A DNA stretch of 38,957 nt. Source: Planctomycetes bacterium UBA1146. Its GTDB lineage: Bacteria > Planctomycetota > UBA8108 > UBA1146. A model generated the notes under the pieces. The model was not told where the DNA came from. It searched no databases and was given only the letters and a program-made list of their open reading frames with translations. Of the stretch, positions 22,976 through 30,223 are shown one piece after another. Made by a program: the position numbers and the translations under genes. The stretch lies in assembly GCA_963854815.1 (NCBI GenBank), contig CAWLAN010000003.1, forward strand, positions 1-38,957, written 5' to 3'. The stretch's first letter is position 1; the number at the start of each line of letters is the position of its first letter.

Positions 22976-24154
22976 TCAGCTTCCTTTCGGGCGGGTGAAT
23001 CTGTCTCGAACCAGTTCCAGGATGGAAACTGTCGCCTCCTCGACCCCCTTCTCATCGGCAAGCAATGCGCCGCCGATCAGCAGCATCGTATCGGACCCGA
23101 AGTCCTCGATCATCTCGGGGATCCTGTCGAGGCTCATGCCTCCGGCAGGAATCGCCCAACCCGGGGCGATGTGCCCCAGCGGTGCTCGCAGTTGCTCGGC
23201 GATCTGTCTTCCTTGCTCGCGGGTGGTAGAGAAGCGGCCTCCGGCGTTGACGAACACCGAGCCATCGAGCCCTGCCAATCGGGCCAGCGTACCATGCACG
23301 ATCGGCAGCGAGATGCCCCCGTCACGGTGAGCCGTCAGGACGCCGCTCATCGAGGGGTGCCCGATATGGACTCCTGGCCAGCGGGAAGTCAGCTCCCGAA
23401 CGCGGTCGAGACCGATGACCCAGGGTGCCATCAGAGCTCCATCGGCACCGGCTTCCAGTGCCACCTCCAGCCGCGCATCGAGTTCTTCGGCGGGAGCCAT
23501 CAGGTTGACCAGGTACAATACATGCCGATCTCCCTCGGTCTCTCTCACCGCCGCCGTGCAACGTTCGATTCGATCGCGAAAAGAAGCGAGGTCATCATCG
23601 AGCAGGTTGTGGTCGTCCTTGATCAGATCTCCGCCACCGGCAATGAAATCTCGACACACCTTGACCAGATCGGCCAGCGGAGCTCCCCTCGGCTTGAGGG
23701 CGGTCGCGACCAGCGGACGATCGTGAACTCCGGTGAGTTCTCTCACTCCGGAGATGCCGTGATTCGGTCCCGGGAAACCTCGCAGAACATCATCCGGGAG
23801 CCGCAGGCCGATGAGACGTACCCCCGGCATCATCGAACAGTTCCCCAGCAACAGATTGAGCCAGCGGGTCAGATCGGAGCCGGCCAGTTCCCCGGCGAAG
23901 GAGAGGGTCAACTGCTGGAGTCCAGGGGAGATCTCGTGCAGATCCTCGACCTTGGCGACGATCTCGCTCTCGATCCCCGGGTGGCGAGAGATGAGGGATT
24001 CCGGAACTTCTACCGTCAATTCGACGGCGATGGATCGTGCCATTGCAACAGAGCCATCTGTTGCAGACAGCACCCGATAGGTCGCTTCGATCCGTTCCAA
24101 GGTCACCTCTTCGAACCCGAATTTTCGTGAAGATCCCGGATCTCTCGCCCTCAT
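22976..24154 (-). CDS. RuBisCO-like protein (form IV), resembling the DeepYkr-type methylthioribulose-1-phosphate isomerase
   Basis: ALKPRG, GGDLIKDDH, HPSMSG, NAGGRF, PAGGM and LLIGGALL motifs; KDDH replaces the KDDE of true RuBisCO. Start may be GTG 24106 or TTG 24100. Confidence 0.88.
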   Translation of the reverse strand: MRARDPGSSRKFGFEEVTLERIEATYRVLSATDGSVAMARSIAVELTVEVPESLISRHPGIESEIVAKVEDLHEISPGLQQLTLSFAGELAGSDLTRWLNLLLGNCSMMPGVRLIGLRLPDDVLRGFPGPNHGISGVRELTGVHDRPLVATALKPRGAPLADLVKVCRDFIAGGGDLIKDDHNLLDDDLASFRDRIERCTAAVRETEGDRHVLYLVNLMAPAEELDARLEVALEAGADGALMAPWVIGLDRVRELTSRWPGVHIGHPSMSGVLTAHRDGGISLPIVHGTLARLAGLDGSVFVNAGGRFSTTREQGRQIAEQLRAPLGHIAPGWAIPAGGMSLDRIPEMIEDFGSDTMLLIGGALLADEKGVEEATVSILELVRDRFTRPKGS

Positions 24155-24275: not shown

Positions 24276-25310
24276 ATGAGCATTCGCGTAGGATTGATGG
24301 GCTTCGGTCGCATCGGTCGCAACGTATTTCGTGCCATCTACGGGCGAGATGATATCGAAATCGTGGCCATCAATGAACTGGCCGATATCGAGTCGATGGT
24401 TTACCTGCTGCGATTCGATTCGCTGCGGGGCCCCTTCGAGGAACCGATCCGCATCCTCGATGACGCCATCTACGCCAAGGGACGTCAGATACCCGTCATG
24501 CACCACCGCGAACCGGGGCAGATTCCCTGGTACGAGTATGGCGTCGACGTGGTCGTGGAAGCGACCGGAAAGTATCGCGCTCGTAACGACCTCGAAAAGC
24601 ACCTCGAACAGGGTGCCAACCGGGTCATCCTCACCACACCCCCCACCGACGATGTTGACCACCTGCATATCCGAGGAGTCACTCCCGACGAGGTGGACCG
24701 ATCGAACCGGATCATTTCGTGCGGATCGTCGACGGCGAATGCCACCGCACTGCTGGTCAAGGTGATCGATGACACCTTCGGAGTGGAGGAGGGCTCCTTC
24801 ACCTCGGTACACGCCTACACCGCCGACCAGAGTCTGACCGATGTTCCCACTTCGGGGGACCTGCGTAGATCCCGAGCCGCGATGCAGAACATCGTTCCCC
24901 AGACCACCTGGACCGATGAAGCCATCGAGGAACTGTTCCCGCACCTACGCGGTCGATTCAAGGGATTGAAACTGAACGTTCCCGTACCCGGTGTCTCCTG
25001 CAGTGACCTCACGGTTCAGACCAAAAGAACGGTCACCGCTGGCGAGGTGAATGAGGTGTTCCGCAGTGCTGCCGACAGCATCCACGATGGAATCCTCTCC
25101 TTCACCGATCAGCCCATCGTCTCCAGCGACATCGCAGGCAGCTCCGCATCGTGTGTTTTCGACAGTCTCGCCACCCTGGTCACCGACGACATCCTGCTGA
25201 AGGTGATCGGCTGGTACGAACAGGGAGGAGGGATCTCTCACCGGATCGTCGAACTGGCCACCCGGTTGGGACCGAAAGCCTCTAGCGGTGGGGAGAGGAA
25301 AAACCGATGA
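24276..25310 (+). CDS. GAPDH-family paralogue lacking the catalytic cysteine
   Basis: GFGRIGR, EATG, VHAYTADQ and DLRRSRAA are present, but the active site reads SCGSSTANA instead of SNASCTTNC, and WYEQG replaces WYDNE. Confidence 0.88.
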   Translation: MSIRVGLMGFGRIGRNVFRAIYGRDDIEIVAINELADIESMVYLLRFDSLRGPFEEPIRILDDAIYAKGRQIPVMHHREPGQIPWYEYGVDVVVEATGKYRARNDLEKHLEQGANRVILTTPPTDDVDHLHIRGVTPDEVDRSNRIISCGSSTANATALLVKVIDDTFGVEEGSFTSVHAYTADQSLTDVPTSGDLRRSRAAMQNIVPQTTWTDEAIEELFPHLRGRFKGLKLNVPVPGVSCSDLTVQTKRTVTAGEVNEVFRSAADSIHDGILSFTDQPIVSSDIAGSSASCVFDSLATLVTDDILLKVIGWYEQGGGISHRIVELATRLGPKASSGGERKNR

Positions 25311-26299
25311 AAGTTGCCATTAACGGTTTCGGACGCATCGGCCGCAGCGTGTTCCGGATCCTGACGGGACGCGATGACATCAATGTCGTCGCCATCAATG
25401 ACATCTCCGATCCTCACTCGCTGGCCTACTTACTGCGTTACGACTCCGTGATGGGGCCGTTCCCCGAACCGGTAACCCTTGACTCACTTACTCTCAGTGC
25501 AGGACGACAAAGTTGCCAGATGCTGGCCGAGAAGGATCCACAACAACTACCCTGGGAAGAACTGTCAGTTGATGTCGTCATCGAATCGACCGGCAGATTC
25601 CGAACTCGCGCTGAACTCGACATGCACCTCCAGGCCGGAGCGGGGAAAGTCATCCTTACGGTACCACCCAAAGATTCCGTCGACGCCCTGGTGGTGCTCG
25701 GTGTCAATGATGAGATCCTGGAGCCGAGCCATCGGATCATCTCAAATGCCTCCTGCACGACCAACTGTCTGGCTCCGCTGGTCAAGGTACTCGACGATTC
25801 TTTCGGACTGGTGCGTGGAGTGATGACCACGGTACACGCCTACACCAACGACCAGAGCCTGGCGGACTGGTATCACCAGGATCTGCGCCGATCTCGTGCA
25901 GCCGGGGAAAACACCATTCCCACCACGACCGGTGCCGCCCGCGCCGTCGGCGAGGTACTCCCTCAACTGGCCGGAAAACTGGACGGGATGGCGATGCGGG
26001 TTCCCGTCATCGACGGATCCGTGGTCGATCTGGTCGCCACCCTCGAGAAACCGGTCACCGTCGAGGACATCAACTCGGTGATGAAGGATAGTGCCGAGGG
26101 CCCGATGAAGGGAATCCTCGAGTATTGCACCGACCCGGTCGTCTCCTCCGATATCATCGGCAATCCCCATTCATCGATCTTCGACTCCCTGTTGACGATG
26201 ACGATCGGCACTCACGGTGCCAAGGTGCTGTCCTGGTACGACAACGAATGGGGATACTCGAGCCGGGTGGTGGATCTGATCGACCGGCTGCGGGACTGA
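25307..26299 (+). CDS. gap: Type I glyceraldehyde-3-phosphate dehydrogenase
   Basis: INGFGRIGR, SNASCTTNCLAP, TTTGAA and WYDNEWGYS motifs are all intact. Confidence 0.96.
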   Translation: MKVAINGFGRIGRSVFRILTGRDDINVVAINDISDPHSLAYLLRYDSVMGPFPEPVTLDSLTLSAGRQSCQMLAEKDPQQLPWEELSVDVVIESTGRFRTRAELDMHLQAGAGKVILTVPPKDSVDALVVLGVNDEILEPSHRIISNASCTTNCLAPLVKVLDDSFGLVRGVMTTVHAYTNDQSLADWYHQDLRRSRAAGENTIPTTTGAARAVGEVLPQLAGKLDGMAMRVPVIDGSVVDLVATLEKPVTVEDINSVMKDSAEGPMKGILEYCTDPVVSSDIIGNPHSSIFDSLLTMTIGTHGAKVLSWYDNEWGYSSRVVDLIDRLRD

Positions 26300-26318: not shown

Positions 26319-26357
26319 AGAAGGGGCCCGGCGGGTGTTACCCGCCGGACCCCTTCT
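26319..26357. terminator. Probable bidirectional terminator hairpin between convergent genes
   Basis: AGAAGGGGCCCGGCGGGT-gtt-ACCCGCCGGACCCCTTCT; 17 of 18 positions pair. Confidence 0.7.
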
Positions 26358-26382: not shown

Positions 26383-27378
26383 CTACAGGTACTTCTGAAT
26401 CTCTCCGAGGCGGATCTCTGCTTCACGCGCGGCTTCGGTACCGGAGTACCTCTTGGCCCTGGCAACGACGGCGTAGATCTTCGCCGCCTCCTCGTACTTG
26501 CCACGCTTTACCAGATCATGAGCCTCAGCCAGCATCTGTCCACCGGACATCTCGGCCTGAATCTTCTTGTCGCGCTTCCAGACCTTGAACTCCTTGTCGA
26601 ACTTCTTGGAGATGTCCATCCCCTTGAAGTCACGAATCCCTCGCTGAAGAGCTAACAGTCCCGTCTCGTACTGGCGCTTCTCCTTGAAGGTAGCGATGGC
26701 CGCGAACCGATCCTCGGAGAACTTGGTGATCTGTTCCATCGCTTCTCTGGCGGCATCCGCCACCGAAGCATCCTTGGCACGCTTGGCCTGCTTCTTCAGT
26801 TCACTGAAGGCCTTGCCGAACTGGCTCGCCTTGATGTACCTGGAGGCCTTGGACAGTTCCGACGGCAGGGAGATCTTCGGACCGACCCGCGCTCCGGCGA
26901 TGTGCTTCTCGATGATGGAGTTGTTCAGCCCTGCCGGGTGACCCTTCCAGACGATCTTCCCATTCGGTCCGACGAGCCAGGAATGCGGAATCCCGCGGGT
27001 CTTGTATTCGTTCGCACCGCCACCGTAGGCGATGGGGTACTTCATCTTGTTACGCTCGACGTAAGGCTTTGTCTTGGTTTCCGGTTCATCGGTGACCCCG
27101 ATGACGACCAGACCGCGCTCCCCGAACTCCTTATGAAGTTTGTTCAGGTGCGGGATCTGCCCTTTGCAAGGTCCTCACCATGTGGCCCATTTTTCGATCA
27201 GAATCAATTTTCCAGCGAGGGATTCCCAGGTCGTCGTTCCCTCGATGTTGATCCAGCCACCAGGCTTCATGGTAGGGGCAACATCCCCCACGGCAGAGCC
27301 TGCCAGGACCGGAAAACTCGCAAGCAAGCAGATGGCAACAATTGCCAGCCAACTGCGAGTTCGAACCTTGGTCAGCAT
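26383..27378 (-). CDS. Exported TlpA/ResA-like thiol-disulfide oxidoreductase, predicted selenoprotein (U68, UGPC motif), with a C-terminal helical/TPR-like domain
   Basis: ATG 27378 after GAAGGGAG; signal peptide; GKLILIEKWATW-TGA(27177-27175)-GPCKGQIPHLNKLHKEFGERGLVVIGV continues in frame into ORF 26383..27045 (GIPHSWLVGPNGKIVW). 331 aa when read through. Confidence 0.87.
27146..27174 (-). promoter_or_regulatory. Candidate bacterial SECIS hairpin of the TlpA-like gene
   Basis: mRNA after UGA reads GGACCU-UGC-aaa-GGG-[CAGAU]-CCC-GCA-CCU; the apical loop starts 16 nt after UGA. Weak, bulged stem, folded by eye. Confidence 0.45.
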
Positions 27379-27609: not shown

Positions 27610-27654
27610 CGATTTGTGATGTCGACCCGCCGATCAACAGGAATTGCCGCAACA

Positions 27655-28755
27655 ATGTCTCGATCCAGGTCCCTTTCGCTGCAGAACCGGCCATTGGCGT
27701 GGGTTCTGGCCATTTTCTTGGCTCAACTGTCAGTCGATGTGCCGCTATGTGGGCAAATCGATGACCCCCCGCTTCCGCTCTTGCCCGTTCCTGTCATCCA
27801 CATCGAGGAGATGGAACACGACTGGGGAAAAGTGCTCCAGGGAACCCGGGTGAAGCATATCTTTACCGTCGAGAACCGAGGCAAGGCGCCACTCAAGATT
27901 CTCAAGGTGTCATCCACCTGCGGTTGCACTTCGACTCGCTTCGACGAAGTGATCGAGCCAGGAGCCAGCGGAATCATCGAACTGCAGGTCGACACCACCG
28001 AATTCTCCGGAGGCAGACCGCGCAAGAATGCTGTCGTGAAAACCAACGATCCGGAACTCTCCGAGGTTCATCTGTGGATGGTTGGCCTGGTCGATCCACT
28101 CCTCCAGTTCGAGAGTTCGGTGTTCAAGCTGTCGGGTCTGGCGATGGAGAAGAAACAACTGAAAACCATCATCGTGCCAGCCGTGGAACTTCCCATCTCG
28201 CTGGTGCAAGCAAAATCGAAGAACGGATCATTTCTGGTCGCTGCTATCGAGTCTCTCGATAAGGGCTGGAAGTTGACTCTCACTGCGGATGTTTCCGAAC
28301 AGGTCAAGAGTCTCCGCGATGACCTGGAGCTGGTGGTTTCGATCGCTGATGGAAAACCCTTCACCATCCCGGTGCCGGTCGTGGTGGAACACAAGGACCG
28401 TATTCTCATGGTTCCGGCCGGGAATTTGATCTTCTACCGCCGTCATACCGCACCTCTCGATGGTCCGGTTCGTCGCGAAGTGGTGAAGGAAGTTCAGGTG
28501 CGCTCGGTGCGCGAGGACCTTCCCATTCTCGACTTCTCGGCAGAAATCATCGAAGCACCCGAGGGCCTGTTCGGCCTCAGGGTCATCGAAGTGATTCCAG
28601 GGCATCACTACAGGGTGCGCATCCAGGTGCTGCGAACCCTCCCCACTGCGCAGGGACGAGGGATCCTCCGGATGCGGCTCGGGCAAGGAAAAGACCAGGT
28701 GAGGGACAAGGGAGTCATCGCACAATTTCGGCTCAAACCGACCGATTCGCCCTAG
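27655..28755 (+). CDS. Exported DUF1573-type Ig-like domain protein (CGC motif), Cys paralogue
   Basis: HDWGKVLQG..HIFTVENRGKAPLKILKVSSTCGCT...IEPGASGII..K..VKTNDP pattern, followed by further beta-rich domains. Start may be 27616 or 27619. Confidence 0.82.
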   Translation: MSRSRSLSLQNRPLAWVLAIFLAQLSVDVPLCGQIDDPPLPLLPVPVIHIEEMEHDWGKVLQGTRVKHIFTVENRGKAPLKILKVSSTCGCTSTRFDEVIEPGASGIIELQVDTTEFSGGRPRKNAVVKTNDPELSEVHLWMVGLVDPLLQFESSVFKLSGLAMEKKQLKTIIVPAVELPISLVQAKSKNGSFLVAAIESLDKGWKLTLTADVSEQVKSLRDDLELVVSIADGKPFTIPVPVVVEHKDRILMVPAGNLIFYRRHTAPLDGPVRREVVKEVQVRSVREDLPILDFSAEIIEAPEGLFGLRVIEVIPGHHYRVRIQVLRTLPTAQGRGILRMRLGQGKDQVRDKGVIAQFRLKPTDSP

Positions 28756-28918: not shown

Positions 28919-30223
28919 GTGAAATACCGAAACATCCAGTTGCCGTTCGCCATGCTGGTACTACTGGTGCTTGCCGTTGCGCTACTACCGTTGTCCGGCT
29001 CGTTGAGTTTCGCCGCAGATGACGATCTCGGACCTCCACCGCCTCCCGCCCAGGAGGGACCTCGTATTCGTTTCGATAGCACCAGTTTCGACTGGGGTGA
29101 GGTGCTCCAGGGAGACAAGGTGGAACACACCTATCGATTCCACAACGTTGGAACTGGCATCCTTCGGATCACCCAGGTCAAGCCTGGCTGAGGTTGCGCT
29201 CGCGGGGCTTTTACCCGCGAGGTTCTCCCCGGAGGGGAGGGCGAAGTGACCCTCGTCGTCGACACCTCGAAACTGCGCACCGAAGCGGTGCGGAAGTACG
29301 CCACCGTCAGTTGCAACGACCCCCGACAGCCACAGATTCGCCTCACCGTCGGCGGAAAATTGCGCCATGTCGTCAAGGTGGAACCCGCCAGCCTCATCCT
29401 CAGAGGAGCCACCGGAGCTGATCTGGTCGGAAAATTGACCTTTTCGAAGGGGACAGATCTCGATATCACCGTCACAGGCGGTACAGCGGCGAAGAATCTG
29501 ATCTACGTCGGTGACATCGTGGAGATCTCTGCTGGTGAGAAGTACGAGATTCAGGTCGAAGCACCCAAGGCACTGGTTCCCGGGATGTTGCGTGACATTC
29601 TCAACGTGGAGATCGTCTGTAGTGACGGTGTGATTCGGACCACTTCGATTCCAGTGACCGTCGATCATCAGGCTCCGATCAGCGTCATTCCGCGCGGGAA
29701 TATCGTGTTCCAGCGCAAGGACACCGATCGCCTCAAGGTCGCGGGATCGGCGCCGGTGAAACGAGACCTGCAAATTTACTCCACCGCCCCGGGAACCCGG
29801 TTCAACATCACATCGATGACGATGGAAGGAACCCCCGAGAATCTATTTCGCCTCTCCCAGAGAGAGATTCGTTCAGGAGAACGCTATCTGGTGACGGTCG
29901 AGGTCACTGAACCACGTCCCGAGCGTTCGATCCGTGGAACCCTACGGATCCTCACCGATCACCCGGATATGCCGGAGGTCACCGCTCGAGTCTATGCTCA
30001 GTTCGGTGTTCCGACGCCGATTCGCCGGCCCGTAACGGTACCCGGCAAGAAGCCAGTTCCATCGCTCAAGGTGCCTGGCAAGAAGGCAACGGCTATCCCC
30101 GGAGTTCCCGGTATCCGGTTATCACCGACCGTGGACATCCCCTTCAAGCCGACTCCAAAACCGAAACCGAAACCGAAACCGGTCATACCCGACAAGCTGA
30201 ACTCCGGTCAGAAACCCGGGTAA
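28919..30223 (+). CDS. Exported DUF1573-type Ig-like domain protein, predicted selenoprotein (U91, UGC motif), with a Pro/Lys-rich tail
   Basis: ORFs 28919..29191 and 29246..30223 share a frame and are joined by one TGA (29189-29191): ITQVKPG-U-GCARGAFTREVLPGGEGEVTLVVDT. This aligns gap-free with ILKVSST-C-GCTSTRFDEVIEPGASGIIELQVDT of the upstream paralogue. 434 aa when read through. Confidence 0.85.
29199..29239 (+). promoter_or_regulatory. Candidate bacterial SECIS hairpin(s)
   Basis: Perfect 8-bp stem CUCGCGGG-[GCUUUUA]-CCCGCGAG (29199-29221), with the loop starting with G at +16 from UGA. A second hairpin CUCCCC-[GGA]-GGGGAG lies at 29225-29239. Confidence 0.65.

Follow-up and report, generated by a model that had tools for sequence, protein, structure and literature searches.

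The reverse strand of a contig from Planctomycetes bacterium UBA1146 carries a gene that almost certainly encodes a selenoprotein. It would be a thioredoxin-fold protein in which an in-frame UGA is read as selenocysteine (Sec), and a hairpin lying far downstream of that UGA may direct its decoding. The window that we analyzed is the whole of contig CAWLAN010000003.1 (38,957 nt), which is contig C3 of a 2.70-Mb assembly (GCA_963854815.1; 232 contigs, 88.4% complete, 58% GC). The gene, its landmarks, and the RNA elements discussed below are listed in Table 1.

When 27378..26383 is translated with TGA as U, it reads as 331 residues in a single frame that ends at a TAG stop, and U68 is the sole codon that departs from genetic code table 11. 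The context of U68 (...LILIEKWATW-U-GPCKGQIPHLN...) puts U where a CxxC motif would have its first Cys. The ATG start is preceded, a few bases 5′, by a Shine-Dalgarno-like stretch (AGGGAGA). Table 11 splits the same DNA into a frame that ends at 27175 and a 220-aa open reading frame (ORF), 26383..27045, which starts at M112. An initial annotation, made from the letters of this DNA, had claimed that the TGA coincides with the first Cys of a WATWCxPC motif, that 43 stop-free codons join it to the downstream ORF, and that a cis-Pro motif (GIP) lies farther on. We found all three: the TGA sits within W-A-T-W-U-G-P-C, codons 69-111 are open and run into the 220-aa ORF, and G129-I130-P131 follows in the same frame.

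Table 1. Coordinates of the putative selenoprotein gene, of its protein and RNA landmarks, and of the hairpin that follows it. RNA positions marked + are counted from the U of the UGA, taken as 0.
Feature	Position	Strand	Basis or remark
Whole selenoprotein gene, 331 codons + TAG stop	26383..27378	-	Full-length orthologue alignment
Proposed start ATG	27378..27376	-	Orthologue N-termini and Shine-Dalgarno-like stretch
In-frame TGA, proposed selenocysteine codon 68	27177..27175	-	Same column in 37/40 homologous loci
Signal-peptide-like N-terminus, residues 1-27	27298..27378	-	Read by eye from the sequence
Thioredoxin-fold domain, TlpA/ResA/DsbE type, residues about 28-164	26887..27297	-	Pfam, VIA-align, Foldseek
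Redox motif U68-G-P-C71 (UxxC)	27166..27177	-	Alignment A2
cis-Pro motif G129-I130-P131	26986..26994	-	P131 invariant
All-helical TPR-like domain, residues 165-331 (167 residues)	26386..26886	-	AlphaFold2 model of the domain alone
H2, long irregular hairpin, 57 nt, +15..+71	27106..27162	-	Proposed structured spacer
H3, UCAUCGG-GGUCA-CCGAUGA, +73..+91, loop at 27093..27097	27086..27104	-	Candidate SelB-binding selenocysteine insertion sequence
Terminator-like hairpin, 18 pairs, 26 nt past the stop, between the selenoprotein gene and the convergent GAPDH gene	26357..26319	-	Consensus scan only

The TGA is widely conserved. When the source genome and 40 relatives were searched in six frames, all 41 gave a match, and in four incomplete assemblies (G001, G008, G014, and G038) no full-length match was found by this search. 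We examined the loci in the top 40 rows, which come from 37 genomes and are 24-100% identical to the query. The TGA occupies the same alignment column in 37 of these 40 loci, which are kin, so that the counts are not independent events. Cys takes its place in L048 (WCNPC) and L052 (NCPPC), and Asn in one further locus. All of the 20 closest loci (45-100% identity, one family) have TGA in this column, within an invariant WATWUGPC, as do 17 of the next 20 (24-45% identity), which come from other families, orders, and the class. Such agreement goes well beyond chance. Full-length Cys homologues were also found in a collection of 5.8 billion proteins. Three of them (P0018, P0019, and P0022) have WATWCGPC, and P0018 (326 aa) is 36% identical over 97% coverage. 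Homologues with either TGA or Cys at this site, which the initial annotation had proposed to look for, are thus both at hand. With identities spanning 100 to 24% and Sec/Cys pairs among the members, the aligned sequences give the picture of a real selenoprotein family.

The one locus with Asn (L046; G036:C4, about 3936322..3937197) has lost the Sec position (STW-N-WLC), yet it retains the second Cys, the fold, and a partial hairpin that resembles H3. L046 may descend from a Sec protein and have lost redox activity.

Selection on the protein is visible on both sides of the TGA. Among 20 orthologues, the diversity at codon positions 1/2/3 is 0.193/0.120/0.483 over codons 28-67, i.e., 5′ of the TGA, and 0.151/0.086/0.308 over codons 69-112, i.e., 3′ of it. 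The pattern is the same on either side, which therefore points to protein-level selection in one frame.

The genome has what is needed to make Sec. It contains selA (510.9 bits against a cut-off of 267.9; contig C13), selB (378.3 bits against 242.25; contig C42), selD (339.6 bits against 125; contig C13), and a tRNA-Sec (67.9 bits, with anticodon TCA by ARAGORN; contig C13). The set selA, selB, selC, and selD, for which the initial annotation had suggested a search, is therefore complete, each member scoring above its curated cut-off. Three of these genes, selA, selD, and tRNA-Sec, are adjacent (C13:6008..8659, reverse strand; loci L001/L009/L011). Moreover, selD has one in-frame TGA, which lies in ...SCAG-U-ASKL..., so that selD itself carries a Sec codon. 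We take the U of CAG-U-ASK to be the site where SelD proteins have Cys or Sec.

As for the signal that would direct decoding, the RNA downstream of the UGA is unusually constrained. The synonymous-codon entropy of the 20 orthologues, with a gene mean of 1.0, falls to 0.24-0.7 at codons about 69-105. Three hairpins, which we named H1, H2, and H3, are found 3′ of the UGA, and the entropy minimum, at codons 90-100, lies over H3 and not over H2. H1 (+4..+18, GACCUU-GCA-AGGGUC) was rejected as a selenocysteine insertion sequence (SECIS). Its core pairs follow from the Gly-Pro-Cys-Lys-Gly-Gln codons, its third-position pair (idx 5/17) shows no consistent covariation, and it would sit inside the ribosome with the UGA in the A site. 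Rfam at its gathering threshold gave no match in the whole window, and it may have no model for such an element.

RNAalifold found no common structure over all 37 Sec sequences. The subfamilies place their hairpins differently, and the 27 sequences of the main clade were therefore analyzed alone in a gap-free alignment (A1). H3 is paired in 27/27 of these sequences (AU->GC in 4, CG->UA in 3, UA->UG in 2), and two of its pairs differ at both partners. L019-L037 share one and the same H3, GGUCA loop included, despite a divergence of the proteins to 47% identity. Elsewhere in the clade, paired substitutions give H3 the forms CAUUGG/CCAAUG (L041), CGUUGGA-GUU-UCCAACG (L042 and L043), and CGUCGG-AGUUA-CCGGCG (L044 and L045). 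H2 is paired in 86.2% of cells, and 8 of its 19 pairs show changes on both sides. For H2 and H3 together, 89.9% of cells are paired; shifting the partners by 1-3 columns lowers this to 26-42%. The paired changes fall within coding sequence, where some coincide with I->V and D->N/G substitutions, the partner changes being on synonymous third positions. When +13..+95 is folded, with the first 12 nt omitted as if they were covered by the ribosome, the result is H2, one unpaired base, and H3. The minimum free energy (MFE) of this fold is -37.1 kcal/mol, compared with -24.8 +/- 3.1 in 200 shuffles (z = -3.92), of which one was as stable.

We then applied the published rules for bacterial SECIS (bSECIS) elements, setting the minimum stem length at 5 bp. 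All 27 main-clade sequences have a hairpin that conforms and has its loop at +80/81, and none of the 27 has one with a loop at +16..+37. Ten distant Sec homologues have a conforming hairpin at +20 (five), +32 (one), or +36 (four), each with its own compensatory changes. Elsewhere in the genome, the Sec genes that we consider credible have a GGUC-type loop 24-34 nt past the UGA, closed by a stem of at least 6 bp (7-9 bp in the four that were folded). The hairpin is CACGAGC-GGUC-GCUCGUG in two thioredoxin (Trx) paralogues, AUGGAAGGG-GGUC-CCCUUCUAU in the C33 gene, and GGGGAUCU-GGUCG-AGGUCCUC in selD (+21..+41). A deiodinase-like gene (FGSYTUPPF) also carries a GGUC-type loop after its UGA. On the strength of these comparisons, we give an even chance to a distal SECIS, in which H3 would be the SelB site and the folded H2 a structured spacer.

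Several observations weigh against this assignment. The loop of H3 is 80 nt past the UGA, outside the normal UGA-to-loop distance of 16-37 nt given in two reviews (PMC13188914, PMC10778597). H3 overlies a peptide typical of the family, (V/I)IGVTDE, so that part of its conservation is at the protein level, and the Sec-less L046 retains a partial H3. The covariation seen in H2 and H3 was reached by 0/500 shuffles, a control that overstates the support, the tested structure having been derived from the MFE of one aligned row plus the consensus and the 27 rows being kin. Finally, hairpins with a GGUC loop and an upstream in-frame TGA are not enriched genome-wide (88/385, compared with 72/431, 102/521, 49/230, and 88/442 for control loops), a count that is uninformative because the open-frame filter is too weak at 58% GC.

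These points leave room for a possible, if rather unlikely, alternative: the selenoprotein is genuine, but SelB binds a non-canonical element nearer the UGA in H1/H2, for example the H2 apex (+37..+52). H3 would then be kept for another reason, such as the IGVTDE peptide, mRNA stability, or pausing. The H2 apex is near the 16-37 nt range, the 8 H2 pairs changed on both sides speak for H2, and some bSECIS elements are described as departing from the consensus (PMC13188914). The overlap of H3 with a family-typical peptide and the persistence of a partial copy in L046 also fit this alternative. However, the apex loops of H2 vary (AUAA, ACGC, ACAC, GAAC, and AAUAA), and its register shifts between orthologues. 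No main-clade sequence has a conforming hairpin with a loop in the canonical interval, and synonymous variation is lowest over H3 rather than H2. Furthermore, H3 in L019-L037 has the invariant loop GGUCA, of the same GGUC type as the loops found after the UGA of other Sec genes in the genome.

It is highly improbable that the TGA is a true stop, whether because the gene is decaying into a pseudogene, was recently hit by a nonsense mutation, or was misassembled, with only the 220-aa C-terminal ORF or nothing being made. The public records might suggest as much. In the 5.8-billion-protein collection, the 15 best of 128 matches are unnamed fragments of 220 or 254 aa that correspond to the C-terminal part, which are what table 11 calls produce; that gene callers would split the gene had been foreseen in the initial annotation. 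In addition, TGA is the commonest ordinary stop, closing 1017/1625 stop-to-stop frames of at least 300 codons in the genome and 22/32 in the window, which bears out the earlier remark that many genes here end in TGA. However, neither error nor recent mutation can explain a TGA column shared by 37 of 40 loci, drawn from 37 genomes and down to 24% identical. Protein-level selection in the one frame acts on the 67 codons that precede the TGA as well as on the 43 that separate it from M112. The 220-aa fragment would be left without the active site, the signal peptide, and half of the thioredoxin fold. The comparative data thus contradict this reading: no sequencing error, fresh nonsense mutation, or pseudogene can give rise to such a pattern.

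We consider equally improbable a non-Sec route, i.e., genome-wide reassignment of UGA to Trp/Gly or near-cognate read-through. In its favor, any code with a sense TGA would keep the frame open. However, TGA closes most long frames and is not reassigned genome-wide (five orthologues of this very gene terminate in TGA). Within the frame, the TGA occupies precisely the site of the catalytic Cys, with Cys opposite it in homologues, and the selABCD set is complete.

The predicted selenoprotein has three parts. Residues 1-27 resemble a signal peptide, with a K/R-rich start, a hydrophobic core, and then VLA-G/S (WLAIVAICLLASFPVLA followed by G-S), the A-G-S being conserved in orthologues. Export is therefore what we infer from this N-terminal sequence and from the extracytoplasmic nature of the structural relatives described below. 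An AlphaFold2 (AF2) model built on 32 homologues has a predicted local distance difference test score (pLDDT) of 87.3, with low values for the helix formed by residues 7-20.

The second part adopts, in this model, a thioredoxin fold in which a helix begins at residue 69, just after U68. In an alignment of the 32 homologues with U written as C (A2), C71 and P131 are invariant in 32/32 and position 68 is nearly so. Pfam recognizes AhpC-TSA (PF00578; 55.9 bits, 5.2e-15, cut-off 26), Redoxin (PF08534; 41.2 bits, 1.8e-10, cut-off 26.6), and Thioredoxin (29.4 bits). By VIA, the closest solved structure is DsbE (3gl3), with Z 18.2 and a root-mean-square deviation of 1.9 over 132 aligned residues, followed by BVU-2223 (4grf; Z 17.1), ResA (2f9s; 16.8), the C-terminal domain of DipZ (5cyy; 16.5), TlpA (1jfu; 14.1), and CcmG (1kng; 13.9), the aligned lengths over these solved members being 126-132 residues (Z 13.9-18.2). 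Foldseek matched DipZ and ResA with an E of about 1e-7, the values over solved members ranging from 4e-8 to 5e-6. The fold is thus of the TlpA/ResA/DsbE kind by three methods, in line with the TlpA-like thioredoxin proposed in the initial annotation.

Against a closer assignment, the selenoprotein misses every NCBIfam equivalog cut-off: it scores 41 against 230 for TlpA (NF047696), 60.2 against 170 for ResA (NF002854), and 30.7 against 123.15 for DsbE (TIGR00385). The selenoprotein model NF041054 (WAxxUGC_long) gives 37 bits against a cut-off of 300, and the motif here is U-G-P-C, not U-G-C. As far as its sequence tells, the protein is a relative of curated NCBIfam families and a member of none.

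The third part was modeled alone by AF2 as eight helices with a pLDDT of 94.2. Foldseek found no match for it in the PDB at E <= 0.001, the best rows being BamD and the YbgF TPR domain at E 0.05-0.1 (best 0.054) with a TM score of about 0.3. Several Cys homologues bear Pfam TPR families in their C-terminal part. Weak NCBIfam matches in this region are to BamD and, faintly, to the C-terminal part of NF041382, a VPGUxxT thioredoxin-like selenoprotein family. As modeled, residues 165-331 are TPR-like, without a close solved relative. Neither this helical domain nor the unusual placement of the candidate SECIS figured in the initial annotation.

From these elements we infer the following mechanism. 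The gene would make one 331-residue protein, UGA codon 68 being read as Sec, which probably consists of a cleavable signal peptide, a thioredoxin-fold domain (U68-G-P-C71, cis-Pro131), and a TPR-like helical domain. In the periplasm, Sec68 would be the attacking nucleophile and Cys71 the resolving residue, and a Sec68-Cys71 selenylsulfide would form as disulfides or oxidized thiols of clients are reduced. The helical domain would probably hold the client or a partner, and a DsbD/CcdA-type membrane electron carrier would re-reduce the selenoprotein. Recoding of the UGA would depend on H3, with its 7-bp stem and GGUCA loop. The folded H2 would leave about 12 single-stranded nt before it and one after it, bringing H3 within about 13-14 unpaired nt of the UGA. 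Such a spacing would be close to that of E. coli, where 11 nt separate the UGA from the minimal stem-loop, whose loop contains G23/U24 (PMC8659212). We consider this overall explanation, export and reductase function included, very likely to be right as to what the protein is, and hold it with less confidence as to mechanism.

The genome has one DsbD/CcdA-type membrane carrier (PF02683, DsbD_TM, 91.9 bits). A carrier of this type is the usual electron donor in TlpA/ResA/CcmG systems. The selenoprotein gene itself stands alone, flanked by two convergent GAPDH genes on one side and two divergent DUF1573 genes on the other, and no cytochrome-maturation or Sco/Cox genes adjoin it. The order GAPDH-SecTrx-DUF1573 is kept in 20/20 family-level loci, and among 14 further loci only in two, both from the same family. 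At L062-L065, which belong to other families, the neighbors that we checked are unrelated enzymes and transporters. A functional link to the DUF1573 neighbors was rejected, the order being treated as synteny. Counting against the proposed function, outside the family the neighborhood points to no client or partner in the loci checked. In G027, a DUF1573 pair is found about 5.8 kb from the homologue. The tandem GAPDH genes of the window (24276..25310 and 25307..26299, forward strand) overlap by 4 bases, and the pair is conserved beside the selenoprotein gene across the family. Farther away, 22976..24154 on the reverse strand encodes a 392-aa protein whose sole match is the RuBisCO large-chain catalytic domain (67.2 bits) and which is probably a RuBisCO-like protein.

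Other candidate selenoproteins are present in the genome. A second likely one lies in the window at 28919..30223 (forward strand), with a TGA at 29189..29191. It is a DUF1573/Ig-like protein (Pfam DUF1573, 61.2 bits), predicted to be exported, and it has VKPG-U-GCA where its neighbor 27616..28755 has SST-C-GCT. In 20 relatives, the 11 best matches each have one TGA and the more distant ones none, this being a count of TGAs per match and not per alignment column. A strong hairpin, CUCGCGGG-GCUUUUA-CCCGCGAG, is found at +10..+32 of this gene. Further in-frame TGAs in redox motifs occur on contigs C58 (about 5751), C5, C1, C194, C20, C33, C4 (about 4398), C50, and C228. They include four to six thioredoxin-fold paralogues (WGNW-U-GPC, WGDW-U-RPC, GYS-U-GIC, APW-U-GWC, and LPG-U-EEC) and other candidate Sec motifs, namely an MsrA-like GGG-U-FWG, a deiodinase-like FGSYT-U-PPF, and SYSP-U-PPC. 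The codon-usage screen of in-frame TGAs behind this list is noisy and was used only to pick obvious redox-motif candidates, among which a search of relatives backs only the C58 and C5 genes. The lineage looks selenoprotein-rich, with Sec forms of thioredoxin-fold paralogues, SelD, and MsrA-like, deiodinase-like, and DUF1573 proteins.

Gene callers routinely split selenoprotein genes. Since public collections hold only unnamed C-terminal fragments of this one, the annotation of marine Planctomycetota has been missing a redox enzyme that is conserved and probably periplasmic. Should H3 prove to be the SelB site at 80 nt, the accepted bacterial distance rule would be relaxed, and the gene would offer a natural case of a structured spacer within a coding region. 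The 16-37 nt rule built into SECIS-based gene finders would then overlook a class of selenoprotein genes. It would also follow that the position of the SECIS can shift during the evolution of one gene family, the sister subfamilies keeping their hairpins at +20 or +32-36.

How does this protein compare with known systems? Selenoproteins of planctomycetes have already been reported (PMC4807772), and Table S9 of that paper, which lists planctomycete selenoprotein candidates, may bear on novelty. The families predicted so far include, as named in a review, a "Prx-like thiol:disulfide oxidoreductase, PF00578, UxxC/UxxU", a "thiol:disulfide interchange protein", and a "UGC-containing TlpA family" (PMC13188914). 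With the Prx-like UxxC/UxxU selenoproteins, as that review describes them, the present protein shares a PF00578 thioredoxin fold with Sec first in UxxC, a bacterial origin, prediction from Sec/Cys pairs, and a SECIS inside the coding region. By the same descriptions, it is set apart by its additional 167-residue TPR-like C-terminal domain and signal peptide, and by a sole conforming hairpin 80 nt from the UGA rather than 16-37 (PMC13188914). NF041054 is likewise a long ResA/TlpA-like selenoprotein family with the context W-A-x-x-U-G, and its match spans residues 51-231, i.e., past the thioredoxin domain; unlike it, the present protein has a UxxC motif, and its score is far below the cut-off. 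A literature search for WAxxUGC, VPGUxxT, and NF041054 found only one review (PMC13188914).

TlpA from Bradyrhizobium, ResA from Bacillus, and CcmG/DsbE are extracytoplasmic Cys-based thiol-disulfide reductases. They resemble the present protein in fold, in a W-x-x-W-C-x-P-C-type active site, in the cis-Pro, and in their dependence on a DsbD/CcdA electron donor, which we would expect here as well. In contrast to them, Sec would replace the attacking Cys, and the protein has an extra helical domain and scores below their equivalog cut-offs. In thioredoxin-TPR fusions of the CnoX/YbbN type, too, TPR-like helices come after a thioredoxin fold; CnoX itself resides in the cytoplasm and relies on Cys/Ser. 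We offer the likeness to this layout as a lead only.

As for the RNA, H3 resembles the E. coli fdhF-type SECIS and the bSECISearch consensus in having a 7-bp stem and a 5-nt apical loop that starts with G-G-U, according to the rules given in PMC13188914, and its loop is similar to the G23/U24 loop (PMC8659212). It differs from the fdhF-type SECIS in that its loop is 80 nt from the UGA, with a conserved 57-nt hairpin in between, and in that no bulged U is evident. Together, these comparisons indicate that the predicted protein belongs to a known kind, the UxxC thioredoxin-fold selenoproteins, while the subfamily that joins WATW-U-GPC to a TPR-like domain is, by its sequence scores, captured by no curated model. 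Judged against the 16-37 nt figure of two reviews, the candidate distal SECIS could be new in kind.

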